64,000 nt of DNA from an uncultured candidatus Porisulfidus sp. (GCA_965221375.1 OZ244883.1:384071-448070), one strand, 5' to 3'; counted from the first letter of the stretch, positions 4,766 through 44,495 are shown. Made by a program: numbers and translations. Notes: generated by a model not told the origin, from the letters alone.

Positions 4766-4779
4766 AAAAAATGTGTGCG

Positions 4780-6141: not shown

Positions 6142-6165
6142 CGTTTGGTGGCTTTATGCTGACGG

Positions 6166-17139: not shown

Positions 17140-17169
17140 GATAAAACCGGGGACTATCTAGTGTTGTGT

Positions 17170-17272
17170 CCCGGGAATAGTAAGCAAAGTTGCTCAATTC
17201 CGTCCATCTTTGCATAATTAAATCAACAGCTTACTATTTTTTGCCCGAGGTTTTGGTGAGGGTGGACTCGGC
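17170..17272. repeat. Repeat copy A: cccgggaatagtaagcaaagt ... (58-nt insertion) ... ggttttggtgagggtggactcggc, immediately 3' of the DUF1640-like gene
   Basis: Direct comparison with copy B at 18037..18088. Confidence 0.7.
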
Positions 17273-17328
17273 GGTGGCGCCGCCGAGCACCCAAATCTTC
17301 CAGATGATTGCCGAAATTAAGCCAAGTT

Positions 17329-17751
17329 TTACTGGAGCTGTGTAATAAATGTCAGCGCCGCAATCACCAAACTCGCGGAAATGAAAGAGTACCACATAAT
17401 CAAAGCTTGCATTTTCGAACTCACCGCGTCAATCTTCGTATCCATACTTTGGATTTTTCCAGTCATGTCTGCGCGCAACGTCTGGATTTCTCCTCGCAGC
17501 TCTTTATGCGCACCGTCCATATCCGAGCGTAATGTCTGGATTTCCCCAGTCATGTCCGAGCGCAACGCTTCAATTTTGCCATCCAAGTGGCGAAAATTTT
17601 CTTTGGTGGCCAGATGCGGAATCTGCGCCTCAATACTCGTCAAGCGTTCCGAGATATTGATCACCGCGGCCGATTCAGCCACCAGCTCGGGCACCGGTTC
17701 TTGCGAAGACATTGAGGGATTGGTGGGTTGGGGTTGTGAGGTCATGACCAT
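17329..17751 (-). CDS. DUF1640-like coiled-coil protein with C-terminal membrane helix
   Basis: LATKENFRHLDGKIEALRSDM..., 11-residue-type repeats EIQTLRSDM / EIQTLRADM, C-terminal MWYSFISASLVIAALTFI. Start taken at ATG preceded by GGAG (MVMTSQ...). Confidence 0.55.
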   Translation of the reverse strand: MVMTSQPQPTNPSMSSQEPVPELVAESAAVINISERLTSIEAQIPHLATKENFRHLDGKIEALRSDMTGEIQTLRSDMDGAHKELRGEIQTLRADMTGKIQSMDTKIDAVSSKMQALIMWYSFISASLVIAALTFITQLQ

Positions 17752-18008
17752 TTTCTCCATAGGCAAGGCCAAAGTCAAGAGAAGCGCATGGCTGTGGATC
17801 TGAGTCTCGCCACTGGGGCGCTTCCGATTATAACCCGCCGCACGAAGCGAATCTTCGGCGAGGGGGAGGATTCCTCATCCTATGCCAGTGATAACCCGAA
17901 GTCCAGAAAAAATGGTCAGACCAACCTGCACATTTTTTTTTCACATGTAAATCAATAGATTAACCTTGTTTTTAAGGTTCTGTAGAGACAGATTTTGGCA
18001 AGAATGGG

Positions 18009-18028
18009 CGCGAAAATGCGCTTTTTTC
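18009..18028 (+). terminator. Orphan intrinsic terminator-like hairpin on plus strand (GCGC-gaaaat-GCGC + TTTTTT)
   Basis: Stem-loop followed by a T6 run. No plus-strand ORF upstream. Confidence 0.4.
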
Positions 18029-18036
18029 AGAGTATT

Positions 18037-18088
18037 CCGGGAATTATGTAAGCAAAGTCAGGCGGTTTTGGTGAGGGTGGAGTCGGCT
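18037..18088. repeat. Repeat copy B: tccgggaattatgtaagcaaagt ... ggttttggtgagggtggagtcggc
   Basis: About 20/24 and 23/24 identity with the two blocks of copy A. Lacks the 58-nt insert. Confidence 0.7.
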
Positions 18089-18205
18089 ACTGCTTCACTG
18101 GACCAGTGCCATAGAATTTTTTGGCGCTAAAAATTAAGTATAATTTCCTAGAAGTACCAATGTTAGGCACTCACAAGTCATCAATCATTTCCGGGGGAAG
18201 TTTAA

Positions 18206-20974: not shown

Positions 20975-20985
20975 GACCTGACAGC

Positions 20986-21050
20986 AAGCCTCCTTCGCGC
21001 GTCCGACGCGGGGGAGGCTTGTCATTCCCGCATGACTGCGGGAATGAATT
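20986..21050. terminator. Bidirectional terminator region between convergent genes
   Basis: Two hairpins (AAGCCTCC..GGAGGCTT and TTCCCGCA-tgac-TGCGGGAA) followed by a T-rich run. Confidence 0.5.
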
Positions 21051-21364
21051 TATTCGTTTTGATCGAACCGGTAATAGCGGCGGCTGAGATATTCCTGCAT
21101 CATCCGGACCTGTTCAGCGGTCCAGTCCAATCCGGCCCCCCGCTGGCAATGATCGATACGGTCGCGTAACTGAGATGCGTTGGCGACCAGCCCATCCTGC
21201 CGCCCATAAAGAAGGTGACCGTCTCCACCGGTAATACGGGCATGGCAGGCCACACAATGCTGCTGGTGTACACTTTCCGCATCAAATGCCTGAACACTTT
21301 GTCCTGCCAGCATCCAGCCGCCCAGTGCCACCAGTATCACGCGATGTCCTAGCCTTATGCCCAA
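21050..21364 (-). CDS. Mono-haem class I cytochrome c (periplasmic)
   Basis: CVACH haem-binding motif, downstream Met ligand candidates. Start uncertain (TTG at 21364 gives a signal peptide; the ORF track extends to 21442 and would overlap orn). Confidence 0.55.
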
Positions 21365-30026: not shown

Positions 30027-30857
30027 TTGATGGTTCCGCAGTTTGATACGCCCCAGGTTATGGGCATTCTCAATGTCACGCCTGACAGTTTCTCCGATGG
30101 CGGTGCATATCCTTCGACCAGCCGCGCGGTCGCCCGAGCCGTGGAAATGGTCGAAGAAGGGGCCCGATTCATTGATGTGGGGGGCGAATCTACGCGGCCG
30201 GGTTCGGATCGCGTCAGTGCGGAAGAGCAGAAGCGTCGCATTCTGGATGTTGTCGAGCAAGTCCGAAAAGAAGTGCCTTCCGAAATTGTGATTAGTGTCG
30301 ACACCACATTGAGCGAGGTGGCACAGGCGGCCTTGGATGTGGGGGCGGGGATGATCAACGACGTGTCGGCGGGTCGGGACGATCCGAAAATGTTTGAACT
30401 GGTGGCCGCGCAGGGTGTGCCGTATTGCCTGATGCATATGCAGGGGACGCCCAAGACCATGCAGGACGATCCGCAGTACACGGACGTGACGGTGGAAGTG
30501 CGAGATTTTCTGCAGGAACGTGCCAATCTGGCACAGCAGGCAGGAGTGGGGGCACAACAGATTGTCTTGGACCCCGGCATCGGTTTTGGCAAACGCACCG
30601 AGCACAACCTGCAGTTGATTGCGCGGTTGTCGGAAATTGTCGCGCTGGGCTATCCCGTATTGCTGGGCACGTCGCGCAAGCGTTTTATGGGGGAAGTTGC
30701 GGATGTCAAGGAGCCGGCACTGCGTATGCCGGCGACAGTGGTGACGACGGGATGGGGGGTGTGCGCGGGAGCCCGCATCTTTCGGGTGCATGATGTTTGG
30801 CAGAATTGCCAAGCCTTGGAGGTTGCGCAGGCGATTCTGCGCGAGGAACGCAACTGA
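30027..30857 (+). CDS. folP: Dihydropteroate synthase
   Basis: VMGILNVTPDSFSDGG ... DVGGESTRPG ... co-linear with E. coli FolP. Confidence 0.9.
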   Translation: MMVPQFDTPQVMGILNVTPDSFSDGGAYPSTSRAVARAVEMVEEGARFIDVGGESTRPGSDRVSAEEQKRRILDVVEQVRKEVPSEIVISVDTTLSEVAQAALDVGAGMINDVSAGRDDPKMFELVAAQGVPYCLMHMQGTPKTMQDDPQYTDVTVEVRDFLQERANLAQQAGVGAQQIVLDPGIGFGKRTEHNLQLIARLSEIVALGYPVLLGTSRKRFMGEVADVKEPALRMPATVVTTGWGVCAGARIFRVHDVWQNCQALEVAQAILREERN

Positions 30858-33569
30858 TTAAACCGCCTCCAGTCTCAAGGCGCAGAATTTAAATTCCGGA
30901 ATCTTCCCGAACGGGTCCAACGCTTCGTTGGTCAGCACGTTGGCGGCCGCTTCGTAAAAGCAAAAGGGCGCGAAGACTTGCCCAGGCATCAGTCCGTCAT
31001 CAATATAAGCCGCGCATTCAATCTGCCCGCGACGCGAACGCAGGCGGATTTGGTGACCGTCCTGAATCTGTAGCGTGGCGGCATCTTGCGGAGCGATGAA
31101 AGCGGCCGCCTCGGGTTCCAGTTCATTGAGAGTGGAGGCGCGACGAGTTAGGGCGCCGGTGTGCCAGTGCTCCAGAAGGCGTCCGGTAATCAAGATGTGC
31201 GGGTATTCGGGGTCGGGCATTTCGGCAGCGTGACGAAATGCAGCCGGCACCAGGCGGGCCTTGCCGCTGGCGGTGGGAAACGTCGTCTCAAATAAAACTT
31301 CCTGACCCGGATCCTGCGGGGTGTCGCAAGGGTAGGTGACAGAGTGTTCCTGCTCCAGCCGGTCCCAGCGAATGCCCTGGATGCTGGCCATGCATTGGCG
31401 CATTTCTTCGAACACGTCGCGTGCCTCCATGGCGGGCCAGTCAAGGCCCATGCGCTGAGCGATTTGCTGGATGATCCACAGGTCTTGCCGGGCATCCCCC
31501 GGCGGCGGGTGCGCGGGTCTACCCAGTTGCACCCGACGGTCGGTGTTGGTGTAAGTGCCCCATTTTTCCATGGCGGCGGAAGCGGGAAGAACGACATGCG
31601 CGTAGGCCGCCGTCTCGGTCAGAAACAGATCCTGGACGACCAGATGCTCCAGCTTTGCCAGTGCCGCCCGGGCATGGTTCAGATTCGGGTCGGACATGGC
31701 CGGGTTTTCTCCCATGATGTACATGCCCCGGATTTCTCCCGCATGGGCCGCCTGCATGATTTCAACCACGGTGCGTCCGGGTTGGGGGTCCAGAGACGTG
31801 TTCCAGAGTTTTTCAAAGCGGGCTCGCGCCTCGGCATCATCGACCCGCTGGTAGTCCGGGTAGACCATGGGAATAAGGCCGACATCGGAGGCGCCCTGGA
31901 CATTGTTTTGACCGCGCAGGGGATGCAGGCCGGTGCCGCGTCGTCCGATCTGACCGGTAATGAGTGCCAGGGCGATTAGGCAGCGGGCATTGTCGGTGCC
32001 GTGGATATGCTGGGAGATGCCCATGCCCCAGAAAATCATGGCGTTGTCTGCCGTCGCATAGCGACGGGCGGCCTCTCGAATGTCGGCGGCATCGATGCCG
32101 CACAAAGACTGCACACGCTCCGGTGAATAGTCCTGGACGTGTCGGACCAGAGCTTCGTAACCGTCCGTACGGGTTTGGATGAATTCAGGATCGGTCCAAC
32201 CCTGTTCGATGATGGTATAAAGCAAAGCATTGAGAAGTGCGACATCCGTATCCGGATGAAACTGCAGAAACACGTCGGCATGGCGGGCCAGATCGGTCCG
32301 CCGCGGGTCGAGGACCATCAGGGTTTTGCCGCTGCGGGCCGCATTTTTCATAAAGGTGGCGGCGACCGGATGATTGACGGTGGGGTTGGCGCCGATGATT
32401 AGAAGAGTGTCGGCATCGGCGACATCGCGAACCGGGTTGGAGACGGCAGCGGAGCCGATGCCTTCAAGCAGTGCGGCGACAGAGGAGGCGTGACACAGAC
32501 GGGTGCAGTGGTCGACTTGGTTGCTGCCGAATGCGCAACGCACCAGTTTTTGAAATAAATAGGCCTCTTCGTTACTGCCTTTGGCGCAGCCGAAGCCTGC
32601 CAAGGCCAGCGGTCCGTGCGTGTCGCGCAATTGGACCAATGGCGTGGCGGCGGCATCCAAAGCCTCTTCCCACGAAGCCGGTCGAAACCAGGAGCGCATG
32701 TCGGAGGCCGAAAGTTGCTCCAGATCGAAATCACGGGGAGCATCCGCCTTGCGAATCAGAGGTTCGGTCAAGCGGTCAGGATGGTAGACGTAATCGTAGC
32801 CGTAGCGGCCCTTCACGCACAGCCGGGAATGGTTGGAGGGACCGTCGCGACCCTGAACCTCAATAATGCGGTTGTTCTGGACTTTCCAGGTCAGCAGGCA
32901 GCCGACACCGCAATAAGGACAGACCGAATCGACTTCACGAGGAGTTTGTTCGGCATGGGATAGGGATTGCAGGGCGCCCGTTGGGCAGGCGTGGACACAC
33001 TCCCCGCAGCCGACACAGGAACTGTCGCCCATCGGGTCGTCCAGATCAAACACAATGGCCGAGTCGCTGCCGCGCTGGGCATAACCGATGACATCATTGT
33101 TCTGGACCTCGCGACAGGCGCGTACGCATCGAGTGCACTGAATACATGCGTCGAGTTGCACACGGATGGCCGGATGCGATGCATCTGCATCCGGTTGTCG
33201 GCGCATGGCGAAGCGGGATTGCTTGATGTCGAACTGGGCGGCCCAGGCGTGAAGTTCGCAGTCGTCGTCGCGTTGTTGCTGCATGTCCGAAAGCAGTAAC
33301 TCCAACACCATTTTTTGGGCGGCACGAGCACGCGGGTGGGTGGAGTGGACCTGCATACCGGCTTGAGGTTTGCGCACGCAGGCGGGCTGCAGGGCGCGTT
33401 CCCCTTCAATTTCGACCATACAGGCCCGGCAGTTGCCGTCGGCACGCAAGCCTTCGGTATAGCACAGATGGGGGATGTCGATGCCTTCGCGACGAGCCGC
33501 CTGCAGAATGCTTTCGTCCGGAAGCGCTTCTATGGCTTGCCCATTCAATGAAAAAGGAATGCGACTCAT
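30858..33569 (-). CDS. fdsA: NAD-dependent formate dehydrogenase alpha subunit (Mo-bisMGD, Cys-type)
   Basis: Start re-set to MSRIPFSLNGQ. N-terminal 2Fe-2S and 4Fe-4S NuoG-like cysteine clusters. Molybdopterin domain with Cys (CTRLCHASSVAAL) at the Sec/Cys position. Confidence 0.85.
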   Translation of the reverse strand: MSRIPFSLNGQAIEALPDESILQAARREGIDIPHLCYTEGLRADGNCRACMVEIEGERALQPACVRKPQAGMQVHSTHPRARAAQKMVLELLLSDMQQQRDDDCELHAWAAQFDIKQSRFAMRRQPDADASHPAIRVQLDACIQCTRCVRACREVQNNDVIGYAQRGSDSAIVFDLDDPMGDSSCVGCGECVHACPTGALQSLSHAEQTPREVDSVCPYCGVGCLLTWKVQNNRIIEVQGRDGPSNHSRLCVKGRYGYDYVYHPDRLTEPLIRKADAPRDFDLEQLSASDMRSWFRPASWEEALDAAATPLVQLRDTHGPLALAGFGCAKGSNEEAYLFQKLVRCAFGSNQVDHCTRLCHASSVAALLEGIGSAAVSNPVRDVADADTLLIIGANPTVNHPVAATFMKNAARSGKTLMVLDPRRTDLARHADVFLQFHPDTDVALLNALLYTIIEQGWTDPEFIQTRTDGYEALVRHVQDYSPERVQSLCGIDAADIREAARRYATADNAMIFWGMGISQHIHGTDNARCLIALALITGQIGRRGTGLHPLRGQNNVQGASDVGLIPMVYPDYQRVDDAEARARFEKLWNTSLDPQPGRTVVEIMQAAHAGEIRGMYIMGENPAMSDPNLNHARAALAKLEHLVVQDLFLTETAAYAHVVLPASAAMEKWGTYTNTDRRVQLGRPAHPPPGDARQDLWIIQQIAQRMGLDWPAMEARDVFEEMRQCMASIQGIRWDRLEQEHSVTYPCDTPQDPGQEVLFETTFPTASGKARLVPAAFRHAAEMPDPEYPHILITGRLLEHWHTGALTRRASTLNELEPEAAAFIAPQDAATLQIQDGHQIRLRSRRGQIECAAYIDDGLMPGQVFAPFCFYEAAANVLTNEALDPFGKIPEFKFCALRLEAV

Positions 33570-35230
33570 GGACCGACTTCCTTGGGGAAATAGCGCAGGA
33601 TGGATTGGGCCGGGTTGGGAGCGGCCTGGCCCAGACCGCAAATCGAGGCGTCGCGCATCGTATCCGACAGCTCATTCAACAGGTCCGCATCCCACTGGGG
33701 CTCGCGCATGAGGGTGACCGCCTTGGCCGTGCCGACCCGACAGGGGGTGCATTTGCCGCAGGATTCATGGGCGAAGAACTGCATGGCGTTGAGGGCCGCA
33801 TCGCGGGCCTGATCATGTTGGGACAATACGATAATGGCCCCGGAGCCCAGGAAACAGCCGTATTCTTCTAAAGTGCCGAAGTCCAGAGGCACATCGGCCA
33901 GTTCCGCCGGCAACATGCCGCCCGAAGCGCCGCCTGGGAAATAGCCGTACAACTCATGTCCGGGGCTCATCCCGCCGCCGTACTCTTCGATCAGTTCACG
34001 CACGGTGATGCCCGCGGGTGCCAGATAGACGCCCGGTTTGCGAACGCGGCCACTGAGCGAATAGGAGCGCAAGCCTTGTCGCCCATGACGGCCTTGGCTG
34101 CAGTACCAGTCGGCACCCTGCTCAAGAATTTTGGGGACCCACAGCAAGGTTTCCAGGTTATGTTCGAGCGTGGGTCGACCAAACAGGCCGCATTCGGCAA
34201 TATAGGGAGGACGCAAGCGCGGCATGCCGCGCTTGCCTTCAATGGATTCAATCATGGCTGATTCTTCGCCGCAGACGTAAGCTCCCGCGCCACGGCGCAA
34301 CTCCAGGGTCGGCAGAGGGTGCGGAAAGTTTTCCTGCAAATCCTGCAGTGCCCCCGCCAGCATGGCGCGGGCACCCGCATACTCGTCACGAATATACAAA
34401 TAAACCTCCTCGGCTTCGATGACGTGGGCGGCGATCAGCACCCCCTCAAGAAAGGGGTGCAACTGGTGCTCCAGGTAATACCGGTCTTTGAAGGTGCCGG
34501 GTTCACCTTCGTCGATATTGACGGCCAGCAGACGGGGTTTGGGGTAATCGCGCACGATGCGCCATTTGCGGGCAACCGGAAAACCGGCGCCCCCCAAGCC
34601 ACGCAGGTCGGCCTGTTCAATGACTTGAAGAAGGTCGTCCGTACCAAGTGCGCCATCCAACAGGCGCTGCAGTTGGGTATAGGCCCCCTGATTGCAGGCT
34701 TCCGTGTAAGTGGGGGCGGCAGGCTCCAAGTCTTCCAGATGGGCCTGTTCCACTGCCGCGCAGACCGTCTCGGCGGTGGCCTGTTCGACGGGATAGCGAC
34801 GCACAACGGCAACCGGAGCGTCCGCGCAACGGCCGATACAGGAGACTTTTTGAATACGTGCCTCAGGCAAGCGTTCGGTCAATTCTGCGGCCAGTGCCTC
34901 GGCTCCAAATAGGGCACAGGTAATGGATTCGCAGACACGGATGGTCAATTCCGGCGGCGGTTCGGCGCCGTCGGGCACGACATCGAAGTGGTGGTAGAAC
35001 GAAGCGACTTCGTAGACTTCGGCAACGGACAATTTCAACCGCTCCGCCAAAGCGGCCAAATGTGCCGCCGAAAGGCTTCCGTAGAAATCCTGGATGGCGT
35101 GAAGAGACTCCAGCAGTTGATCACGCCGCGTAGGTCGACCGTCCAGCAATTGCGCGACTTCGGCGCGGGCTTCGGGAGTGACCGTGTGACCGCGTCGCCG
35201 GCGGTGAGGGGTCGATCCGTCGGCAGACAT
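33566..35230 (-). CDS. fdsB: Formate dehydrogenase beta subunit with fused N-terminal gamma (NuoE-like + NuoF-like)
   Basis: 554 aa. N-terminal NuoE-type 2Fe-2S thioredoxin-like domain (CESITCALFG...CIGRCADAP). Then a NuoF-like FMN/NAD/4Fe-4S domain (GLGGAGFPVARKW, ESCGKCTPCRVG). 4-nt overlap with fdsA. Confidence 0.8.
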   Translation of the reverse strand: MSADGSTPHRRRRGHTVTPEARAEVAQLLDGRPTRRDQLLESLHAIQDFYGSLSAAHLAALAERLKLSVAEVYEVASFYHHFDVVPDGAEPPPELTIRVCESITCALFGAEALAAELTERLPEARIQKVSCIGRCADAPVAVVRRYPVEQATAETVCAAVEQAHLEDLEPAAPTYTEACNQGAYTQLQRLLDGALGTDDLLQVIEQADLRGLGGAGFPVARKWRIVRDYPKPRLLAVNIDEGEPGTFKDRYYLEHQLHPFLEGVLIAAHVIEAEEVYLYIRDEYAGARAMLAGALQDLQENFPHPLPTLELRRGAGAYVCGEESAMIESIEGKRGMPRLRPPYIAECGLFGRPTLEHNLETLLWVPKILEQGADWYCSQGRHGRQGLRSYSLSGRVRKPGVYLAPAGITVRELIEEYGGGMSPGHELYGYFPGGASGGMLPAELADVPLDFGTLEEYGCFLGSGAIIVLSQHDQARDAALNAMQFFAHESCGKCTPCRVGTAKAVTLMREPQWDADLLNELSDTMRDASICGLGQAAPNPAQSILRYFPKEVGP

Positions 35231-35239
35231 GGGCGGCCG

Positions 35240-35752
35240 TCAGGATAGAAGGTTGTTAAAAAACTCCAAGGCTTGCGAGGAGTCCCACTCGCGCTCGCCG
35301 ATGGCCCAGTAACGGGCATGCCCTTGTGCGTCAATCAGAAAAGTGGAGGGAAGCGCACGAACACCCCATCCGTCCAGCTGCAGGTCCTCGTCCATCAGAA
35401 TCGGAAAACTGACGGGGGTCTCTTCAAGAAACTTTTCGATATCGGCGCTGGGGCCGACATGGACGCCAATCACTTCAAAGGCGGTTCCGCCCAACTGTTG
35501 GTTGAGGCGGTCCAGCGCGGGCATTTCTCGGCGACAAGGCGCACACCAGGTGGCCCAAAAGTTAATCAACAGCACGCGACCTCGCTGCTGGTTCAGGCGC
35601 CAGTGTTGACCATCCAGAGTTGGCAGTACGAAATCAGGGGCGAGGTCTCCAGAGGCCGGATTCATGAGTTCCGGTTCCTCTGAGCACCCGGCCAATGCCA
35701 GAGTGCAGGCCAGCAGCAGGATCTGCCGGCTAAGGGAGGAGCGACGGTTCAT
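35240..35752 (-). CDS. TlpA/ResA-like thiol-disulfide oxidoreductase lipoprotein
   Basis: Lipobox LALAGC. Thioredoxin motif WATWCAPC. Confidence 0.75.
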   Translation of the reverse strand: MNRRSSLSRQILLLACTLALAGCSEEPELMNPASGDLAPDFVLPTLDGQHWRLNQQRGRVLLINFWATWCAPCRREMPALDRLNQQLGGTAFEVIGVHVGPSADIEKFLEETPVSFPILMDEDLQLDGWGVRALPSTFLIDAQGHARYWAIGEREWDSSQALEFFNNLLS

Positions 35753-37097
35753 GGGCCCAGTTGGGGTCGGTCAAACTCAAGTCTCCGATCGGGGCGGCGA
35801 AGGCATCGGCGACAATTTCAGTCACGGTATCGCCGGTCAAAGCCCGTAGAAAGGCCTCCAAATCCTGTTTTTCCGTCTCCGTCAGATTGAGCGGCGTAAT
35901 CAGGGGTGACAGCAACTCATTAGGAATGCCGCCGCGGTCGTAAAAATCGATTACTTCCCGCAAGGTATCAAATTGACCGTTGTGCATGTAGGGAGCGGTC
36001 AGGGTGACGTTACGCAAGCTCTGGGTGCGGAATTTCCAGCGATCGTTCGGGTTTTCCGTGACCCGATACAGTCCGAGATCGTTGGGCATCCGTTGTTGGG
36101 TGACGCTGTCGATCTTTTCATTGGGGACATCCGCAAAGACCCCGGGTGCCAGTTGGACGCGGGTTGTGCCGGGCTTCGTCGACTCCAGCGGCTTGTCGAA
36201 CGTCACGGCATAACCGAGACCGGTGTTGTGGAATTGCTGGTCGGTAAACAATGCATGATCTTTCGCAATGGTATGGCAGGCGAAGCAGCGGGCTTTGCCT
36301 GAAAACAAGGTGAATCCGCGTTTGACATCTTCCTCCACCGCATCCGGCTGGTTACCAAAATGCCAGCGGTCGAAAGGGGAATCGCCGGCCAGCAGGGTGC
36401 GCTGGTAGCTGGCCAGCGCCTGGCCCACCGTCAGAATGTTGGGCCCCGCGCCGTCGAAAGTCCGTTCAAACAAGCCGTCGTAGTCCTGCATGCGGCTGAT
36501 CTTGTGGACCAGCCAGCCAATGGAAGGCGCTGCCATTTCGTTGTGCGCGGTGAGAGGCTGCCAGACCTGGTTTTCAAGGCTGTGTTCGCGACCGTCCAGA
36601 AACAGTCGAGTCAGGTAGGCGATGTTGTAGAGGCTGGGCGAGTTACGTAATACGGAACGGCCTTCGATGCCGACCGCGGTACGCATTTCATTGTTGGTGA
36701 AGCCTTGTTCCGGAATATGGCAGGTGGCACAGGAGAACGTGTCGTTGAAAGACAGCCGGCGGTCAAAAAAAAGTTTCCGCCCCAGGTCAATTTTCGGCCG
36801 CGTCAGCGGGTTGTCGGCCGGGATGGGTACGGCGGGCAGACCCAACGGCGGATTTTGCGCGAAGCGGATCAGGTCCTTTTTGATGCCTCGCCGCTGCAGC
36901 AGGCTTTTGGAGCGGGTTTCGTAATCCGCACTTTCATAGCCTTCCTTGACATCGCCGGGGCCTTGGGTTTGGGTGGCATCAAACGCCTGGGGCGAGTCGA
37001 CTTCGCCACTGGTTTCAGCACCCGCCGATGCAATCAGACTGAAACCGATGCCAATGGCGAGGCACGTGCGGAGGCGAGGCCAGGCCATCGGAAGCAT
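35730..37097 (-). CDS. Dihaem cytochrome c peroxidase family protein (CCP/MauG family)
   Basis: 455 aa. Signal peptide. Two CxxCH motifs (CATCH, CFACH) in the CCP/MauG arrangement. Confidence 0.85.
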   Translation of the reverse strand: MLPMAWPRLRTCLAIGIGFSLIASAGAETSGEVDSPQAFDATQTQGPGDVKEGYESADYETRSKSLLQRRGIKKDLIRFAQNPPLGLPAVPIPADNPLTRPKIDLGRKLFFDRRLSFNDTFSCATCHIPEQGFTNNEMRTAVGIEGRSVLRNSPSLYNIAYLTRLFLDGREHSLENQVWQPLTAHNEMAAPSIGWLVHKISRMQDYDGLFERTFDGAGPNILTVGQALASYQRTLLAGDSPFDRWHFGNQPDAVEEDVKRGFTLFSGKARCFACHTIAKDHALFTDQQFHNTGLGYAVTFDKPLESTKPGTTRVQLAPGVFADVPNEKIDSVTQQRMPNDLGLYRVTENPNDRWKFRTQSLRNVTLTAPYMHNGQFDTLREVIDFYDRGGIPNELLSPLITPLNLTETEKQDLEAFLRALTGDTVTEIVADAFAAPIGDLSLTDPNWAHEPSLLP

Positions 37098-37105
37098 GGA
37101 AGTTT

Positions 37106-37804
37106 TCAGAGCGTCGATTCTTCCATGAGCAACGTTTCAAGATCGCTCAGTAACAGGTCGGGATGGAGAAAGGAGACACTGTAAATATTGCGAATCCGAC
37201 GCTCACGGTCGATCAAATACACCCGCAGCATGTGGGCGTAGTCGCCCGTGTAACGTCCCTCTTCATCGTATTCGGCAATGGTGTATTGGCCATAGTCATC
37301 CAGAATCGGCTCCAGGGCGGCTCGGTCGGGAGCCGTCAAAAACTGCCAGTCGACGCCTTTTTCACCCAGCCCACGCCCGAACTCACGCATCACTTCGGGC
37401 GAGTCGTGGTCCGGATCGAAGGACATGGAAAGCAGCCGCGTGGCCGCCGCCAGATCCGGTCGCGTTTCCATTTTTTTCTGCAGTTTGTGAAAGACCGCAT
37501 TGGCGAGGGGACAACCATTGATGTCCGAGCAGCGCGTATAGATGAAACTGAACAGCACCAAGCGGTCTCCCATGAGATCGAGCAACTGCGCCGGTTGGCC
37601 ATCTTCGAGCAACACGTTTCCATTGGCGGCCTGCATAATCGGGGGCAACTTGTAAGTGCCTGGGGCCGGAGGCGGGTAATCCAAAGCCCGCCAGCCGGGG
37701 GCGAGCACCTCTGGCTGTGAAGAAGCAAACGTGGGAAGGACACAGGTCGCAACCAGCAGACCTATGGCCAAGCGTACGGGAGTCACCAAGTTCAAAAGCA
37801 TCAA
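37106..37804 (-). CDS. SCO1/SenC family copper chaperone
   Basis: 232 aa. FIYTRCSDINGCP, SFDPDHDSPE, HMLRVYLIDRE motifs. AAGGAGG SD upstream. Confidence 0.8.
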   Translation of the reverse strand: MMLLNLVTPVRLAIGLLVATCVLPTFASSQPEVLAPGWRALDYPPPAPGTYKLPPIMQAANGNVLLEDGQPAQLLDLMGDRLVLFSFIYTRCSDINGCPLANAVFHKLQKKMETRPDLAAATRLLSMSFDPDHDSPEVMREFGRGLGEKGVDWQFLTAPDRAALEPILDDYGQYTIAEYDEEGRYTGDYAHMLRVYLIDRERRIRNIYSVSFLHPDLLLSDLETLLMEESTL

Positions 37805-37865
37805 GAAAACCTCCTTTGAGGAAATATTGTATTAGTCTTTTGTCACAAGTTCAGGGTTCCCGTTG

Positions 37866-37900
37866 CAAGAAAAAGCCGCCCCGGCAAAACGGGGCGGCTT
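37866..37900 (-). terminator. Intrinsic terminator after the SBP56 gene (minus strand)
   Basis: 11-bp perfect stem AAGCCGCCCCG/CGGGGCGGCTT, loop gcaaaa, followed on the minus strand by TTTTTCT. Confidence 0.7.
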
Positions 37901-37937
37901 CAGGCTTATCGTGGCGGGAGACCCGCCTTCGATTTAA

Positions 37938-39281
37938 TTACTCAGCCGCGGCAACTCTGGCACGCGATGCGGATTTGCCTCCGTAGAGCGAATAGGCGCC
38001 GAAGCGCATCTGGTGCGAACGCCCCAGCTTGTGCTCATAGAAGTCAATGGTCCACTGGTGCTTCAGCTCATTGCCGTCCCAGTGATACAGCTTGACATAC
38101 TGCTCATCGGCTTCGCCGGTCTTATCCCAGTTGCCCAGCAGCGAACTGGAGTAATAGAGGCGCGCGCCGTCCCAGCTTTGCGACACCATGTTGACCTGAC
38201 TGCCAATCGCTGCCTCAAGAACCTGGTGGGGATTGTGCGGGTCACTGATATCGAAGTAGCGGGTCATGCCATCCAAAAACGTGTTAATCCACAGGCCGGT
38301 GTCGTCCGCAGTAATGGAAATGTCTACCGGCAACGGTATTTTGGAGGGATCGCCAACGTCCGCAACTGCTTTGCCGTGCCATTCACCGGCTTCATCTTCA
38401 TACAGCAACCAGAGTTGCGAGGTCAGTGCCGTGGTGGTGAAGCAATAGCGGTGATTGGGGTCCCAGGCGCAACGAATTTCCAGCGGCGCTCCAGGCACGT
38501 CCAGCACCTTGAGCGGTTTGCGCTCATGCATGTTCCAGACCACCATGGTGTTGCCGAAGCGCTGCATGGCAGCTTGGTCTTTGAGCATCTGGCCGAAATC
38601 CATCATGTAATTGGACCATCCGGTGAAGGAGGACGTGAGCATGACGTTGCTCTCGGCCTTCACGCGCACGTCGTATCCATACCCGTCGGCATGCTGGCCG
38701 GTTTTGACTGCATCACGCAGATCGGCATCGGTCGGCATCCAGTGGGTAGCCACAAACTCGCCCTGGTTGTTGTACTCGGCAAGACCGGTACGACCACCGT
38801 GATCGACGTTGTTGGATAGCGCCGAAATCATCATGCGTCCCGGCAGTGCGTAGAACGTGTGCGGACCGACCAGACCACCGGTTTTTTCCACATAATCAGT
38901 GATGACTTTGTGCAGAGCCGGCTGGCGCGGATTGGAATAGATGTCGAAGATAAAAATCTTGTTGGAGTCCAAACCGCCGGCCCAAAGATATTTGCGGTCG
39001 TCGCTGAGACCCGAATGATGGGCTTCGTTGCGTCCGCCTACAGAAAGCACGCTGACGATCTGGGCATAGGTTTGGGATTCGGGGTTGACGTCGATCGTGA
39101 CCAGTTTGTCCTGCTCGTCACCAAGGCCCTCGACCCCCAGAGTCCAGACATAGACGTAATCTTCTTGACCTTGAATTTTCGCCATATACGGCGACATGCA
39201 GGTTTCATCGGCCTGCGCCGGCATGGCCCACGCAAACATGGCCGCCATCGCCAGGCCTGTTCCAAAAATCTTGTGTTTCAT
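37938..39281 (-). CDS. mtoX: SBP56 (selenium-binding protein) family periplasmic protein, methanethiol oxidase-like
   Basis: Start re-set to MKHKIFGTGLAMAAMFAWAMPAQA (signal peptide, GAGGA SD). SBP56 family throughout. The SCO1 + MauG-like neighbourhood is as described for MtoX. Confidence 0.8.
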   Translation of the reverse strand: MKHKIFGTGLAMAAMFAWAMPAQADETCMSPYMAKIQGQEDYVYVWTLGVEGLGDEQDKLVTIDVNPESQTYAQIVSVLSVGGRNEAHHSGLSDDRKYLWAGGLDSNKIFIFDIYSNPRQPALHKVITDYVEKTGGLVGPHTFYALPGRMMISALSNNVDHGGRTGLAEYNNQGEFVATHWMPTDADLRDAVKTGQHADGYGYDVRVKAESNVMLTSSFTGWSNYMMDFGQMLKDQAAMQRFGNTMVVWNMHERKPLKVLDVPGAPLEIRCAWDPNHRYCFTTTALTSQLWLLYEDEAGEWHGKAVADVGDPSKIPLPVDISITADDTGLWINTFLDGMTRYFDISDPHNPHQVLEAAIGSQVNMVSQSWDGARLYYSSSLLGNWDKTGEADEQYVKLYHWDGNELKHQWTIDFYEHKLGRSHQMRFGAYSLYGGKSASRARVAAAE

Positions 39282-39545
39282 AAATTCCTCAATGGCTAAG
39301 TTTTCAATAATTCCCGGCTTCAGCAGCCGACACACCCCCTACGGGCGCATCCGACTCGGTATCGCCTGCCTCAATTATGGACGAATCTGGCGGTGCGTCA
39401 AGTTGCAGGGCAGCCGAAAAAGTGCGTCTCATCCGGTTTGCCCCCGAATAGGGGCGATGCAAGCAGCGTCGAGGAGCATTGCCGAGCGAAGGATATTGAG
39501 CGTTTAAAGTATGATAAGAAATTCAAAATATCGCCTCCAATAGGG

Positions 39546-39875
39546 ATGTCCAAGGATTTTGTCACGTTGACCGAGCGCGCGGCGGTTCGCATTCAAGAGC
39601 AACTGCCCAAGGACGAGGAAGGGGTCGCCTTGCGTCTGGCTGCACGGCGGCTGGAGGACGGAAGTTTCCATTACGCCATGGGGTTTGATGATCAACATCG
39701 CGAAGGGGATCAGCGTTTCAGTGTTCAAAAGATACCGTTGGTGATCGGAGCCGACAGCCTCGCATTGATACGAGGGATGACTGTCGATTTTGCCGAACTG
39801 GAGCCGGGCGAGACCCGCTTTGTTTTTCTCAACCCCAATGATCCCGCCTACAAACCTCCGACCGAACCGTTGTGA
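39546..39875 (+). CDS. HesB/IscA-fold protein lacking all conserved cysteines
   Basis: Aligns with the IscA core (VTLTERAAVRIQEQL ~ ITLSDSAAARVNTFL; LRLAARRLEDGSFHY ~ LRLGVRTSGCSGMAY). No Cys anywhere. Stop overlaps the kinase start. Confidence 0.55.
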   Translation: MSKDFVTLTERAAVRIQEQLPKDEEGVALRLAARRLEDGSFHYAMGFDDQHREGDQRFSVQKIPLVIGADSLALIRGMTVDFAELEPGETRFVFLNPNDPAYKPPTEPL

Positions 39876-40783
39876 CGCTTGAACTGCCCGATGTTTCCGC
39901 GTGGTGGGTGCTGATCCCGTTGGCGGGGGCGGCGGGTTTCATTCTGTGGGTCTATTGGCGACGAGTTCTGCCGTATGCGGTGATCCGGCAGTGGGCGTTT
40001 CGGATGCGCGGCGGGGACTTGTCCGCGCGCATGCATCCTCCACGCGCGGGCAATTTCGCTGAGCTGGCGGTAGACCTGAATGTGTTGGCGGAAATGATTC
40101 AGACGTTGTCCCGGGACACCGAAGAGCAGCTGCAGGGGTTTCGCGAATACACGGCGATGAAAGAGCGGGCGCACATGTCCGGCGAACTGCACGACTCGCT
40201 GGCGCAGACTTTGGCGGGCATCAAAATCCAGGTGCGGGTATTGGATGAGACCCTGCACCAGGGCGATGAAGCGCAAGCCTGGCAGGAGTTGGAGCGTATC
40301 GAGGGCAATCTGGAACAGGCGAACCATGAGTTGCGTGAACTCATCGCTCATTTGCGGGCACCCATTGAAGGGTCCGGACTATTGCCGAAGGTGGAGCAAG
40401 TGGTGGAGCGCTTCCGTCACGATTGTCCTGAGACGCAAATTTTCGTGCAGTCGCAGTGGGAGGATTTGCTGCTGCCTGCCGAGCAGGAACTGCAGATTGT
40501 GCGCATCATTCAGGAGGCGTTGGCGAATGTGCGCAAGCATGCGCAAGCCAGTACGGTACGCATCATGATTGCCGGCGATGCGCAAAGCCGACAGTGCCGA
40601 GTGCTTGTGGAAGATGACGGAGTGGGTTTGAAAAAGGTCCCGCAGGAAAATGTTGCCGGTCGTCACATTGGTTTGAATTTGTTGCGCGAGCGGGCGCGAC
40701 GCCTGGGGGGCGAATTACGGGTGGAGAGCGAGCCGGGGGAGGGTGTGCAAGTGGCGCTCAACTTCAAGGCCATGCAGGAATGA
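39872..40783 (+). CDS. Sensor histidine kinase, NarX/DegS type (1 TM + HAMP + HisKA_3 + HATPase), no periplasmic domain
   Basis: 303 aa. HisKA_3 ELHDSLAQTLAGIKIQ. HATPase G-boxes. Confidence 0.85.
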   Translation: MTLELPDVSAWWVLIPLAGAAGFILWVYWRRVLPYAVIRQWAFRMRGGDLSARMHPPRAGNFAELAVDLNVLAEMIQTLSRDTEEQLQGFREYTAMKERAHMSGELHDSLAQTLAGIKIQVRVLDETLHQGDEAQAWQELERIEGNLEQANHELRELIAHLRAPIEGSGLLPKVEQVVERFRHDCPETQIFVQSQWEDLLLPAEQELQIVRIIQEALANVRKHAQASTVRIMIAGDAQSRQCRVLVEDDGVGLKKVPQENVAGRHIGLNLLRERARRLGGELRVESEPGEGVQVALNFKAMQE

Positions 40784-41469
40784 AAGCTCTCAAGGTCACC
40801 ATCATTGATGACCACACGTTGTTTCGTGATGGTTTGCGGGGATTGCTGGAGCGTCACGGGCTGAAGGTGCTGGATTCGGTGGGCGATGCGCAGGCCGGCT
40901 ATGCGGCGTTAGATCGACAAAGTCCCGATGTGGTGTTGCTGGATTTGCGCTTGCCAGGCACGGGCGGTTTGGAGATTTTGCGGGAATTGCGCAAGGATGC
41001 AAATTGCCCGCCCGTGGTGATGTTGACCACCAGCGATCAGGAAGCGGATCTGGTGGAGGCGTTACGGACGGGGGCAAGCGGTTATTTACTCAAAGACATG
41101 GAACCGGACGATCTGGTGGTTGCGTTGCGTGCGATCGTGTCGGGTGAGACCGTAGTGGCGCCCAGTCTGGCCCCGGCTTTGGCGCGGGTGGTCCAAGGTC
41201 ACGAGCCGCAAGCTTCAAAGGAGGACGAAACCCCCTTTGATGTTTTGACGCCGCGCGAGCGGGAAATTCTGGCGCTGTTGGCGGAGGGGTTGAGTAACCG
41301 GGGAATTGCGAATAGTTTGGGAATTTCCGAAGGCACCGTCAAGGTGCATGTCAAGGCCATTTTGCGAAAACTGCAACTGACATCAAGGGTGATGGCGGCC
41401 GTGTTGGCGGTCGAGCATGGGTTGGGGGGCAAGAAATTTCCGGCTCAACCCGACACGGAATCGGACTAG
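40780..41469 (+). CDS. NarL/FixJ-family response regulator (REC + LuxR HTH)
   Basis: 229 aa. D-D-K receiver residues; C-terminal LTPREREILALLAEGLSNRGIA. Confidence 0.9.
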   Translation: MKALKVTIIDDHTLFRDGLRGLLERHGLKVLDSVGDAQAGYAALDRQSPDVVLLDLRLPGTGGLEILRELRKDANCPPVVMLTTSDQEADLVEALRTGASGYLLKDMEPDDLVVALRAIVSGETVVAPSLAPALARVVQGHEPQASKEDETPFDVLTPREREILALLAEGLSNRGIANSLGISEGTVKVHVKAILRKLQLTSRVMAAVLAVEHGLGGKKFPAQPDTESD

Positions 41470-41681: not shown

Positions 41682-43202
41682 ATGTGGTTCCGATACATCC
41701 CGACGTCTGTTGCACTGGCATTGGCAATGACCTTGCCGTCTGTGACTGTGGCATCTCCCTCAGAAATTGAGCATCTGAAGCAGGAAAATGCGCAGATGAA
41801 GGAAATGCTTATGCAGATGCAGGAGCAACTGCAGGAAGTCATCATGAAAACCAAGGCCATGGAGCAGGCTGCGAAGGAAGGCAAAGACAAGAAAGGCGTG
41901 GTCAAATCCCAGAAGGAGAACATCACCATCTCCACGACCGGCGGGGGCATTCAGGTCAAATCCAACACGGGCAGCCAGTTCAAGATTGGTGCTCGTTTAA
42001 TGTTCGATCACTATTCTTACGATGAATTTTGGAATAGTACGGCCGATGATGAGGCGGAAGAAAATGAAATTCGTCGCGCCCGTTTCACGCTAAGTGGCAA
42101 CACGGGCAAGCATTGGTCGTACAAGTTCACCACCGATATTAATCACGAGGGTGGACGCGCCAGTGTGGATACCGGTTTTGTGCAATACGCTAGCAAGCCG
42201 ATGTACGTCAGATTTGGCAAATTCAAACGTCCGGCCATGGTGGAAGAGCGTACCAGTTCCAAGTGGCTTTCTACGATGGAACGTTCAATCGTGAGCGAAT
42301 TGTCGGGGACTTTCACCGGCAAGCCTTCTTTCGGCGGTGTTGGAGTCGGGTTCGCCACCAAAGGCGATATGCCGATGAGTGGTGCGCTGGGCATCTTCGA
42401 TGATGAAGTCGATGAAGATGATGGAGCGGATATCTATGGCTTGGGTGCGCGCTTCTCAATCTCCCCGAAATTCGATGACCATTCCTTCATGCATGCAGGC
42501 CTGTCGTACTACAACGTCGACTACAAGGGTAAAGACTTCCGTATGCGTTCACGCCTGGGCGTACGTAGCGATGGCAAAGTCCACCCGTTTGAAACCGATC
42601 AGATGAAAACCGATGATATTGATCAGATAGGTGTGGAACTTGCCTATGTGCGTGGTCCCTTCTCTCTGCAGGGCGAATTCATGAATGTGGAGTCCGATGG
42701 TACCAATGACGAGGGTTGTGGTGCTGTGACGCACAACGGTCGAAGCGGAGACAATCTCCTGTTTACTCGGGAAGGTGAAAATACCTGCGATATTGAAATG
42801 GATGGCCTTTATGCGCAGGCCGCTTACACGCTTACGGGCGAGACGCGCGGCTATTCGGCATCCTCGGGCGCATTCAAGTCCATCAAGCCGAAAGATGAAA
42901 TGGGAGCCTGGGAAGTGGTGCTTCGTTATGAAGATGCCGAAGTCGATATTCCGGGGCGCAACATCAGTGCTGATTTGGAGCGTCTGGTGGTCGGCTTGAA
43001 CTGGTATGTCAACAAGAACGTCAAGTTCATGTTGAACTATGTGGATTCGGAGATTGACGATTGCTCCAGCAGCGGTGTGACTGCCACAGATTCGAACGGT
43101 GAGAATCCAATTTCATACACGGGTTGGTCGCACAAGAAATGTGGCAATAACAACGAAGATAGTGGCAATGCACTCACATTGCGAGGCCAGTACGTGTTCT
43201 GA
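41682..43202 (+). CDS. Phosphate-selective porin O/P (OprO/OprP) family outer-membrane porin
   Basis: 506 aa. Signal peptide, N-terminal coiled coil, beta-barrel ending QYVF. Confidence 0.75.
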   Translation: MWFRYIPTSVALALAMTLPSVTVASPSEIEHLKQENAQMKEMLMQMQEQLQEVIMKTKAMEQAAKEGKDKKGVVKSQKENITISTTGGGIQVKSNTGSQFKIGARLMFDHYSYDEFWNSTADDEAEENEIRRARFTLSGNTGKHWSYKFTTDINHEGGRASVDTGFVQYASKPMYVRFGKFKRPAMVEERTSSKWLSTMERSIVSELSGTFTGKPSFGGVGVGFATKGDMPMSGALGIFDDEVDEDDGADIYGLGARFSISPKFDDHSFMHAGLSYYNVDYKGKDFRMRSRLGVRSDGKVHPFETDQMKTDDIDQIGVELAYVRGPFSLQGEFMNVESDGTNDEGCGAVTHNGRSGDNLLFTREGENTCDIEMDGLYAQAAYTLTGETRGYSASSGAFKSIKPKDEMGAWEVVLRYEDAEVDIPGRNISADLERLVVGLNWYVNKNVKFMLNYVDSEIDDCSSSGVTATDSNGENPISYTGWSHKKCGNNNEDSGNALTLRGQYVF

Positions 43203-43261
43203 TTCGGGTTTAGGGTCAGGCGTGCTGCCGGAAGTCGTCGTTTGATCCACCTGTTCCTAAT

Positions 43262-43289
43262 CCGCCGCCTTCTGGGCGGCGGATTTTTT
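43262..43289 (+). terminator. Intrinsic terminator after porin gene 1
   Basis: CCGCCGCC-ttctg-GGCGGCGG followed by ATTTTTT. Confidence 0.8.
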
Positions 43290-43346
43290 GCACGTCAGGT
43301 TTCGGGCGGATTTTTCAAAGTCGCGCAATGTGCTACACTCAAACCT

Positions 43347-44495
43347 ATGAAATGGGGGCGATTTTATTTGAATAGGGTACGGTGCGCAGAGTCGGGTGCG
43401 GTTCGGTTTAATAGATTTTTAATAACCCCATTCGCAAACAGAAAAATAGTACGTGGGGCATGGGCAGGATGTTTGTGCTTCAGTTTGAGTCTGTTGTCTC
43501 CCGCCTACGCTCTCTCGGACAACGATCTGGATCAGTTGGCCGACGAAAGTACGCAGATGCGCGAATTGATGACGCGCATGCAAACCCGTCTACAGGCTCC
43601 CGCCCGCGCGGCGCTGCCGGTAGAGACGTTTGATCAGACTTCGGGTTTTGATTTGAGTTTAGGTCAAACCTCGGCGTGGGCACCGGCGTCGGCGATGTTG
43701 GGAGGGTCTTTGCAAGCGCGTTGGGCCCGCATGATTGAACAGGGTGTTCTGGGACGCTTCGCTGACAGCGAGGCGGATACGCAGCGAGTCGTATCAACGC
43801 CTCCCACCGTGCGGTTTGTGGCGGGTGAGGAGTTACCGTGGTACGGCTCCGTACGGCTGCGCGGTCCGGCCGAGCAAGTTGCGCTGAACCCGGTTGAGGT
43901 GCAGGCGCAATTGATGGTGGTGCCGCGTTTTGATGACGGCAGTTTCCTGCACGTGGGGATTTCGTACCACGCCTTGGACATGTCTCGCGAAACGACCGCG
44001 ACACAGAAGTTTGCGGATGATCAGAACTGGGGTCAAGGCGACTGGCGGCGTTTGGGAATGGATTTGGGTTATATCCAGGATTCCTATTCGGTACAGGCGC
44101 GCTATATGAAACTTCGCGGCGAAGTATCCGACATCGGGCTGCAGTACCCGCATGAAACGCTGCGCGGCAGCGAGCGTGTGGATGTCGAGGGTTTTTACAT
44201 TCAAGGGGCCTGGCGCATCGCCGGAGAGCCCCTGGAGAGCTATTACGCTCCGGGACTGCTTGCCCACATTGAGCCGCGCGACGAAGAAGGGATTTGGGAA
44301 GTGGTGGTGCGCTACGCCAATTTGGGCGGGACATCACGGGATCAGTCGAATGTGTCCGACTCCATGTTGCTGGGCGTGCACTGGCGCGCCGGATCGTCGT
44401 TCAAGCTGCAGCTGGACTACATTGAAGGCAGCGACGAAGCGTCATCTATTTCCGGTGACGGCGGTTTGAGCTTGCGAGGCACTTTGTCATTCTGA
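43347..44495 (+). CDS. Porin O/P family paralogue
   Basis: Shares Porin_O_P C-terminal blocks with the upstream paralogue (WEVVVRYANL; ...LRGTLSF). Start set at ATG 43347, downstream of the terminator (the ORF-track start at 43242 lies inside it). Start uncertain. Confidence 0.6.
   Translation: MKWGRFYLNRVRCAESGAVRFNRFLITPFANRKIVRGAWAGCLCFSLSLLSPAYALSDNDLDQLADESTQMRELMTRMQTRLQAPARAALPVETFDQTSGFDLSLGQTSAWAPASAMLGGSLQARWARMIEQGVLGRFADSEADTQRVVSTPPTVRFVAGEELPWYGSVRLRGPAEQVALNPVEVQAQLMVVPRFDDGSFLHVGISYHALDMSRETTATQKFADDQNWGQGDWRRLGMDLGYIQDSYSVQARYMKLRGEVSDIGLQYPHETLRGSERVDVEGFYIQGAWRIAGEPLESYYAPGLLAHIEPRDEEGIWEVVVRYANLGGTSRDQSNVSDSMLLGVHWRAGSSFKLQLDYIEGSDEASSISGDGGLSLRGTLSF

Follow-up and report, generated by a model that had tools for sequence, protein, structure and literature searches.

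Predicted FDH1-type formate dehydrogenase genes adjoining a putative methanethiol oxidase cluster in an uncultured candidatus Porisulfidus

The methanethiol oxidase MtoX is a copper-dependent member of the SBP56 family, and its gene forms the core of a cluster with SCO1 and mauG homologues (Eyice et al. 2017; PMC5739008). The clusters of Hyphomicrobium sp. VS and Ruegeria pomeroyi have the order mtoX, SCO1-like, MauG-like (PMC5739008). The same order is found in the DNA described here, a 64-kb stretch from an uncultured candidatus Porisulfidus species (GCA_965221375.1 OZ244883.1:384071-448070; hereafter the window), which adds downstream a tlpA-like gene and two genes for a predicted formate dehydrogenase (fdh1B and fdh1A) of the FDH1 type of Methylobacterium extorquens. 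Its parts are assigned with high confidence. The region is rather probably the known mtoX-SCO1-mauG(-tlpA) cluster with cytoplasmic FDH1-type genes at its 3' end, and we hold a functional coupling of this dehydrogenase to methanethiol oxidation, argued purely from gene neighbourhood, to be about equally probable.

Other described mtoX loci are linked to the fate of the MtoX products. In Methylophaga thiooxydans, mto clusters 1 and 2 run mtoX-sco1/mauG-tlpA-pdo-sqrB-sulP (PMC6548844). As in the window, the SCO1 and MauG functions are succeeded by a tlpA-like gene and then, in the same direction, by genes handling a product of MtoX; SCO1 and MauG are fused there and the downstream genes form a sulfide branch (pdo, sqrB, sulP), whereas the window has separate genes and a one-carbon (C1) branch (fdh1BA). 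Table S7 of Eyice et al. records S-(hydroxymethyl)glutathione dehydrogenase and S-formylglutathione hydrolase beside mtoX in Leucothrix, gfa in Magnetospira, a 'formate DH subunit upstream' in Methylocapsa, and, in other genomes, neighbouring sqr or sox genes (PMC5739008). These entries are table remarks, and none is described as an FDH1 pair at the tlpA end or an fhc-fdh1 block beside mtoX. Two recent symbiosis preprints report symbiont mtoX clusters, with the tetrahydromethanopterin (H4MPT) pathway elsewhere in the genome. Literature searches for mtoX-fdh or mtoX-fhc clusters, for the structure of the MtoX cofactor and for SBP56 in sponge sulfur oxidizers brought up nothing further; in particular, neither an FDH1-type pair attached to an mtoX cluster nor an fhc-fdh1 block beside mtoX was found described. 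Thus, the core of the cluster is known and the attachment of the FDH1 pair is new; it is logical rather than surprising, and well supported by conservation.

The individual components also have characterized counterparts. FDH1 of M. extorquens AM1 (7E5Z, 7VW6) has two subunits, a beta subunit that fuses NuoE and NuoF, and an active-site Cys-His pair plus Arg, all of which recur in the window. Tungsten is a feature of FDH1 in M. extorquens, a free-living alphaproteobacterial methylotroph, and the sequence of the window does not distinguish tungsten from molybdenum; here the fdh1 genes stand behind periplasmic maturation genes, beta before alpha. The FdsGBACD enzymes of Rhodobacter capsulatus and Cupriavidus necator belong to the same superfamily and have the same cofactor chain, but their gamma and beta subunits are separate, whereas they are fused here. 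MbnH-MbnP and MauG-methylamine dehydrogenase are maturation pairs, and TlpA-ScoI is a pair of Bradyrhizobium. The dihaem protein of the window shares the Tyr-ligated haem signature of MbnH and MauG, with 6E1C as its closest structure, but scores below both equivalog cut-offs, and its substrate protein would here be MtoX. Like TlpA-ScoI, the array sets a thioredoxin-like reductant beside a SCO1-type chaperone, though with C-x5-C spacing in the chaperone.

Gene array and predicted products

The array and its boundary gene comprise the following features, with coordinates given as positions in the window:

37938-39281, minus strand: mtoX, predicted SBP56 methanethiol oxidase, 447 amino acids (aa)
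37106-37801, minus strand: SCO1-like gene (sco1), putative SCO1/SenC-like periplasmic copper chaperone, PF02630
35730-37097, minus strand: MauG-like dihaem gene (mauG), two CxxCH motifs, signal peptide, PF03150
35240-35752, minus strand: tlpA-like gene, TlpA/ResA-like thioredoxin-fold lipoprotein
33566-35230, minus strand: fdh1B, fused NuoE+NuoF subunit by its Pfam domains and 7E5Z_B match
30858-33569, minus strand: fdh1A, predicted catalytic Mo/W-bis-PGD formate dehydrogenase alpha subunit by TIGR01591 and 7VW6_A match
30030-30857, plus strand: folP, dihydropteroate synthase (TIGR01496 at 322 bits), array boundary and synteny marker

The open reading frames (ORFs) agree with genes called independently on a public contig from a metagenome that carries identical proteins; none of the antisense, plus-strand ORFs inside the array is called as a gene there. 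The closest protein relatives come from Candidatus Porisulfidus-like metagenome-assembled genomes. A gap of 136 nucleotides (nt) separates mtoX from sco1; the remaining junctions are an 8-nt gap (sco1/mauG), a 23-nt overlap (mauG/tlpA), a 9-nt gap (tlpA/fdh1B) and a 4-nt overlap (fdh1B/fdh1A). An earlier note on this DNA, made from the sequence alone, had described six co-directional minus-strand genes that, starting from SCO1, either overlap or are at most 9 bp apart, and both statements are exact. Its array end at 39335 is merely the GTG of the longest ORF and gives way to the likelier ATG at 39281, which has a GAGGAA ribosome-binding site 6 nt before it. At the other end, fdh1A and folP are convergent and their stop codons abut, 0 nt apart (30855-30860), leaving no space for a terminator on either strand; the stop-to-stop junction of a related locus, L084, is identical (0 nt; 12718-12719).

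The window SBP56 protein passes every sequence test run and is predicted to be a copper-dependent methanethiol oxidase, in line with the MtoX-like label that it had been given. It scores 744.9 bits against the MtoX equivalog NF052453 (cut-off 650; profile positions 1-406 of 408) and 164.5 bits against PF05694 (SBP56). An alignment with the purified Hyphomicrobium sp. VS enzyme, whose sequence is given in the supplement to Eyice et al. (PMC5739008), shows 54% identity across 434 residues, and His88, His89, His141 and His423, invariant in 82 related sequences, fall on the proposed copper ligands His89, His90, His140 and His412. Its N-terminus (...AMPAQA / DETCMSPY) has a predicted signal peptide ending in AQA and a mature start at DETC, signal peptides and lipoprotein sequences having been read by eye from the sequence without a prediction tool; the purified, likewise periplasmic, Hyphomicrobium enzyme begins DETXNSPF (PMC5739008). 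The SCO1/SenC and MauG-domain genes claimed to flank mtoX both lie directly downstream of it, an arrangement kept in most of 80 species-level genome loci around MtoX relatives, onto which all array genes were mapped. A PDB search for MtoX and SELENBP1 returned no solved structure nearer than the distant archaeal 2ECE. Cys271 and Cys280 of MtoX are invariant in 82/82 gammaproteobacterial sequences, whereas the Hyphomicrobium enzyme has Trp and Ala there; they may form a clade-specific disulfide.

The two last genes of the array had been labelled a fused fdsGB and an fdsA of an NAD-linked formate dehydrogenase. The dehydrogenase assignment holds, with Fdh1A scoring 736.4 bits against TIGR01591 (Fdh-alpha; cut-off 666.25), and the Fds label was dropped because the matches to M. 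extorquens FDH1 are far stronger. Fdh1A scores 1202 bits with 7VW6_A (M. extorquens FDH1) compared to 585 bits with 6TG9_A (R. capsulatus FdsA). Residues 13-550 of the 554 aa of Fdh1B match 7E5Z_B, whose deposited name is 'tungsten-containing formate dehydrogenase beta subunit', at 663 bits, compared to 227 bits for R. capsulatus Fds beta (6TG9/6TGA). By these scores, the pair is of the FDH1 type, Fdh1B then Fdh1A. The Cys-His pair (RLCHAS) and catalytic Arg (LRGQNNVQG) of Fdh1A are conserved in the 7VW6_A alignment; the protein is of the Cys type and has no twin-arginine translocation (Tat) signal. Fdh1B combines 2Fe-2S_thioredx (PF01257), Complex1_51K (PF01512) and NADH_4Fe-4S (PF10589) in one protein that has the 2Fe-2S, FMN/NAD and 4Fe-4S motifs and lacks an export signal. 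Neither subunit having an export signal, the dehydrogenase is placed in the cytoplasm, where it is predicted to reduce NAD+. The gene organization also departs from FdsGBACD: gamma and beta are fused, and the convergent folP stands directly after fdh1A. The window yielded no FdhD/FdsC-like gene, and an FdsD would fall below the size limit of the ORF scans, which over positions 1-27000 covered ORFs of at least 150 aa. No tupABC or modABC was noticed in the window, in which molybdenum cofactor biosynthesis and tungstate/molybdate transport were not specifically searched for. All dehydrogenase ORFs are intact, and ratios of nonsynonymous to synonymous substitution rates (dN/dS) are low (fdh1B 0.07-0.15; fdh1A 0.06-0.13; mtoX 0.07-0.085); intact frames under purifying selection argue for a functional dehydrogenase.

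The array had been proposed as a possible methanethiol-to-CO2 operon. Its two ends, MtoX and formate dehydrogenase, are present, but the formaldehyde-to-formate step is not encoded in the window. The suggested search for formaldehyde-oxidation genes, run on the 64 kb, found none of fae, mtdB, mch, fhc, frmA/B, gfa, folD and purU, and tblastn with Fhc proteins gave no match there; the middle of a methanethiol-to-CO2 route is therefore left unfilled here. The remainder of the window is housekeeping in character (accA, tilS, pyrG, kdsA, mgtE, ptsP, lpt genes, a TonB-dependent receptor gene, nadB, rpoE-rseAB-degP, lepA, two porin genes, and his, tat and leu genes).

Three predicted periplasmic proteins are encoded between mtoX and fdh1B. 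The first starts with a signal peptide or membrane anchor and matches PF02630 weakly (45.3 bits; gathering threshold 22.8), compared to 159.6 bits for canonical SCO1 in related loci. Its Cys91, Cys97 and His190 align with the Cys-Cys-His triad of canonical SCO1, though the cysteines are spaced C-x5-C (CSDINGC) in place of CxxxC because of an invariant Asn-Gly insertion. The motif C-[STN]-D-x-N-G-C occurs in 79/79 mtoX-linked homologues (window and L002-L086), which keep the distal His, whereas the canonical SCO1 neighbours, adjacent in many of the same loci, have CPDIC or CPDVC (39/39). The family part of the earlier SCO1/SenC label stands and its canonical part does not; the mtoX-linked protein is, on its motif, better named SCO1-like.

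The second protein matches CCP_MauG (PF03150) at 159.5 bits, and its top NCBIfam matches are MbnH (TIGR04039; 241.9 bits, cut-off 362.85) and MauG (TIGR03791; 209.4 bits, cut-off 443.85), both below threshold; the best solved structure is 6E1C. Its CxxCH motifs, CATCH and CFACH, are invariant. Tyr386, invariant in 77/77 homologues, aligns with MauG residue 294 (3L4M chain; ungapped, 22-63 to 255-296) and with the peroxidase Met in 2C1U, 1NML and 1ZZH (motif E-A-V-x-x-M). We take Tyr294 to be the haem ligand that sets MauG apart from peroxidases, in which Met is presumably the ligand. The protein thus has Tyr in place of the Met of the His-Met high-potential haem of bacterial dihaem cytochrome c peroxidases, which favours modification or maturation of MtoX over H2O2 removal. 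Both roles had been offered for it; the peroxidase candidate was dropped on this residue. It is placed in a separate subfamily of the MauG/MbnH superfamily, with His-Tyr haem ligation, and is likely an MtoX maturation enzyme.

The third, with a lipobox (LAGC), a WCAPC active site and AhpC-TSA/Redoxin domains, finds its best NCBIfam matches in ResA (NF002854; 103.2 bits, cut-off 170) and TlpA (NF047696; 90 bits, cut-off 230). Its CxxC is found in 77/77 homologues; with a thioredoxin fold and a lipobox but sub-threshold scores, the protein is TlpA-like only. In Bradyrhizobium, ScoI is a chaperone that TlpA reduces, so that a pairing of TlpA with SCO1 fits copper delivery. Together, the SCO1-like, dihaem and TlpA-like genes agree with the periplasmic copper-site assembly suggested earlier.

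Homologues of the window MtoX are called 'selenium-binding protein' in public sources, and its assignment in the symbiont clade is made from sequence. It might accordingly be a selenium- or metal-binding protein rather than an oxidase, with the dihaem protein, which lies under the MauG and MbnH equivalog cut-offs, an ordinary H2O2-removing cytochrome c peroxidase. This alternative is highly improbable. The MtoX equivalog cut-off is passed, the identity, all four His and the mature N-terminus agree with a purified enzyme that contains no selenium (PMC5739008), the defining SCO1 and mauG neighbours are present, and the dihaem protein has Tyr where peroxidases carry Met.

Conservation and rearrangement of the linkage

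Three loci (L084, L085 and L086) were added to the comparison through the nearest FdsA homologues. The six-gene array is also present in L084 and L085, and in L003 up to a contig end inside fdh1B. L086 has the same genes, with only the 3' end of mtoX in the fetched stretch, and a 4.9-kb insertion (3185-8089) carrying a 1634-aa type ISP restriction-modification gene between tlpA and fdh1B. The tlpA-fdh1B gap measures 9 nt in the window, 8 in L084, 4 in L085 and 3 in L003, genomes among which synonymous sites are largely saturated. The mtoX-dehydrogenase tie is therefore no accident of the window genome, and the claim that a formate dehydrogenase is physically tied to the MtoX module is borne out in these relatives, with the insertion in L086. 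In L086, fdh1B is called shorter (506 aa), and both dehydrogenase genes are still under purifying selection.

Not all members of the clade retain the dehydrogenase. In 11 loci, mtoX-sco1-mauG-tlpA abuts the convergent folP, and the dehydrogenase is missing without trace. In a neighbour-joining MtoX tree, genomes that have the dehydrogenase are basal and paraphyletic, and the 11 lacking it group in one derived clade, which argues for a single clean loss of fdh1BA there. No FdsA homologue from five complete chromosomes lacking the dehydrogenase was among the best 120 matches.

The tie extends beyond the clade in which it had been noticed. Within the fetched stretches around mtoX, fdh1 occurs in 23/80 species-level loci, 18 of which also have fhc; the product of fhcBADC, the formyltransferase/hydrolase complex, is the formate-releasing enzyme of the H4MPT pathway. 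Divergent placement of fdh1B-fdh1A beside mtoX is seen in 22 species of more distantly related marine Gammaproteobacteria. In the first subtype of this arrangement, fhcB, fhcA, fhcD and fhcC lie between fdh1BA and mtoX. In the second, fdh1BA is directly divergent, fhc is 6-10 kb downstream in most loci, and folP faces fdh1A convergently, as it does in the window. Loci of a third group read folP-PCD-SCO1-mtoX and lack a dehydrogenase, and Arenicellales loci have mtoX-sco1-mauG only. The P0086 locus holds the second mtoX copy of its genome, has mauG-mtoX only without a dehydrogenase, and is uninformative on linkage.

These arrangements suggest an old folP-fdh1-mtoX neighbourhood, in which the mtoX-to-tlpA block would have been inverted in the symbiont clade to become co-directional with fdh1BA. 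Small genes lying between would have been lost, and the dehydrogenase lost repeatedly, including by the clean fdh1BA deletion in the derived symbiont subclade. The same history allows the linkage to be read as a relic of synteny, in which fdh1BA was left beside mtoX by inversion and deletions and serves general formate oxidation without being tied specifically to methanethiol. In favour of this are the convergence of folP with fdh1A shared by the window and the divergent-type loci, the third group, the retention of mtoX in the crown subclade that lost the dehydrogenase, the tolerated insertion in L086 and the small size of the window genome (~1.64 Mb). However, the adjacency has survived at least three arrangements (co-directional; divergent at ~3 kb; divergent behind fhcBADC), the gene set of the relatives (fhc and, in some loci, a fwd-like set) is specifically C1-oxidizing, and the tlpA-fdh1B junction stays at 3-9 nt in four diverged genomes despite largely saturated synonymous sites. 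A synteny relic is thus rather unlikely, although it carries more weight than the other alternatives considered here. Whichever the origin of the linkages, mtoX has stayed near genes of C1 oxidation across several rearrangements.

Transcript structure, proposed mechanism and significance

Transcription signals of the array centre on the region upstream of mtoX and the mtoX-sco1 spacer:

39374-39401, minus strand: promoter-like site TTGACG-16 nt-CATAAT, ~90 nt upstream of the mtoX start codon
37866-37900, minus strand: terminator- or attenuator-like hairpin plus T tract in the mtoX-sco1 spacer, with a 12-bp GC-rich stem and a 6-nt loop
37912-37926: second small hairpin in the mtoX-sco1 spacer

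The promoter-like site has 10/12 consensus matches and is weak evidence, because such sites are no commoner here than in shuffled sequences. The spacer folds more stably than expected (z = -3.09; 0/200 shuffles fold as well). The hairpin 3' of mtoX is kept in all close relatives via compensatory changes, and a hairpin plus T tract occupies this position in 63/82 loci, with a stem sequence that varies by clade. The 136-nt spacer thus holds a strong, conserved terminator-like hairpin, and the single operon proposed for the array is doubtful. Downstream, sco1 has a good ribosome-binding site (AAGGAGG), the genes from sco1 to fdh1A leave no space for signals between them, and no ribosome-binding site for fdh1B is evident in the 9-nt tlpA-fdh1B spacer.

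The array could accordingly comprise two units: a monocistronic mtoX with its own terminator, and a separate sco1-mauG-tlpA-fdh1B-fdh1A operon with its own promoter and possibly another regulator. Beyond the hairpin and T tract after the mtoX stop and the AAGGAGG before sco1, an A/T-rich, -10-like stretch precedes sco1 in the window and in relatives, albeit with odd spacing. A search of the stretch from the hairpin to sco1 for a sigma-70 promoter gave no convincing -35/-10 pair at normal spacing, and none is claimed there. Furthermore, in microarrays of R. pomeroyi, growth on dimethylsulfoniopropionate induced the predicted operon of mtoX, SCO1 and mauG-like genes as a whole (PMC5739008). We consider two fully separate units quite improbable; they would in any case concern transcript structure only and be compatible with functional coupling.

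Several observations weigh against coupling of the dehydrogenase to MtoX. The terminator-like hairpin leaves co-transcription of mtoX with fdh1BA not assured, and neither an fdhD/fdsC-like gene nor a formaldehyde-to-formate gene turned up in the 64-kb window. The 11 relatives that keep the mtoX module without the dehydrogenase indicate that it is dispensable for MtoX and thus accessory, and these losses, together with the tolerated insertion in L086, indicate that tight coupling is not required. In addition, the FdsA tree separates the symbiont clade, on a long branch outside all other sequences, from the divergent-type clades, so that a single ancestral linkage is supported by synteny only.

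Under the coupled reading, mtoX would be strongly transcribed from its own promoter, and partial read-through of the hairpin, or re-initiation, would give a lower level of the five downstream genes. In the periplasm, TlpA would keep the cysteines of the SCO1-like protein reduced, SCO1 would deliver copper, and the dihaem enzyme would modify MtoX post-translationally. MtoX would then convert CH3SH + O2 + H2O to HCHO + H2S + H2O2. The H2S would feed symbiont sulfur oxidation, while HCHO would enter the cell and be converted to formate by a route not encoded in the window, and Fdh1AB would oxidize formate to CO2 with reduction of NAD+.

More broadly, and only tentatively, methanethiol may be a dual electron donor, of sulfur and C1 carbon, for an uncultured guild of marine and sponge-associated sulfur-oxidizing Gammaproteobacteria. 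In this guild mtoX would be the entry to a dedicated C1-oxidation island (fhcBADC, a fwdDBA-ftr-fwdC-like set and fdh1BA), whittled in reduced Porisulfidus-like symbionts to an mtoX maturation operon hard-wired to FDH1. If so, formate dehydrogenase expression would follow the supply of methanethiol from the host or its microbiome. Conserved linkage of mtoX with genes for the oxidation of formate or formaldehyde would identify lineages that draw reducing power from methyl carbon as well as sulfur. With the mtoX-C1 link seen in one sponge-symbiont-like clade and, otherwise arranged, in 22 other species, it could help to interpret metagenomes from chemosynthetic symbioses, those of sponges included. 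Genomes with the dehydrogenase, without it and with one interrupted junction form a natural gain-and-loss series for its contribution, while the C-x5-C SCO1-like variant and its Tyr-type dihaem partner offer handles on copper enzyme maturation.

Neighbouring genes and other loci

Upstream of mtoX lies a divergent group of genes:

39546-41469, plus strand: genes for a Cys-less IscA-fold protein, a HisKA_3 histidine kinase and a NarL-type response regulator

This trio is also divergent from mtoX in L002, L004-L009, L011-L013 and L085 and is absent from L084. By position and family its products are candidate regulators of mtoX; the candidate regulator here would be a NarL-type two-component pair, compared to LysR or IclR in the published clusters. 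The IscA/HesB-fold gene (39546-39875, plus strand) shares 4 nt with the beginning of the histidine kinase gene, and its product contains no cysteine, which rules out the usual Fe-S cluster binding. Two tandem Porin_O_P porin genes (41682-44495, plus strand) follow the response regulator gene.

Among the other loci, L082 (8609-11380; genome OZ245760.1) has a second mtoX copy preceded by a mauG-like gene, with no SCO1, adjoining genes for DsrC, a rhodanese-domain regulator and globins as well as prophage-like genes. In the first divergent subtype, a second set resembling fwdD-fwdB-fwdA-ftr-fwdC lies downstream of the mtoX module. In L070, fhcB-fhcA-fhcD-fhcC-fdh1B-fdh1A (1827-8301) flanks mtoX and the fwd-like set (15781-21105) stands on the opposite side, a layout shared by L042, L050, L051, L067, L071, L074 and L081. 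The L070-type second set is paralogous and resembles true formylmethanofuran dehydrogenase, its FwdB-like protein scoring above the equivalog cut-off. Many non-symbiont loci carry pterin-4a-carbinolamine dehydratase and canonical SCO1 genes between folP/fdh1B and mtoX (L065 8613-9572 and equivalents; L017 8200-9800), a pair absent from the window. Finally, L065 has, between its folP and fdh1A genes, a 112-aa ORF (3462-3800, minus strand) that matches no family; it recurs with 40-69% identity in L055, L062-L064 and L068, and might encode a small dehydrogenase-associated protein.

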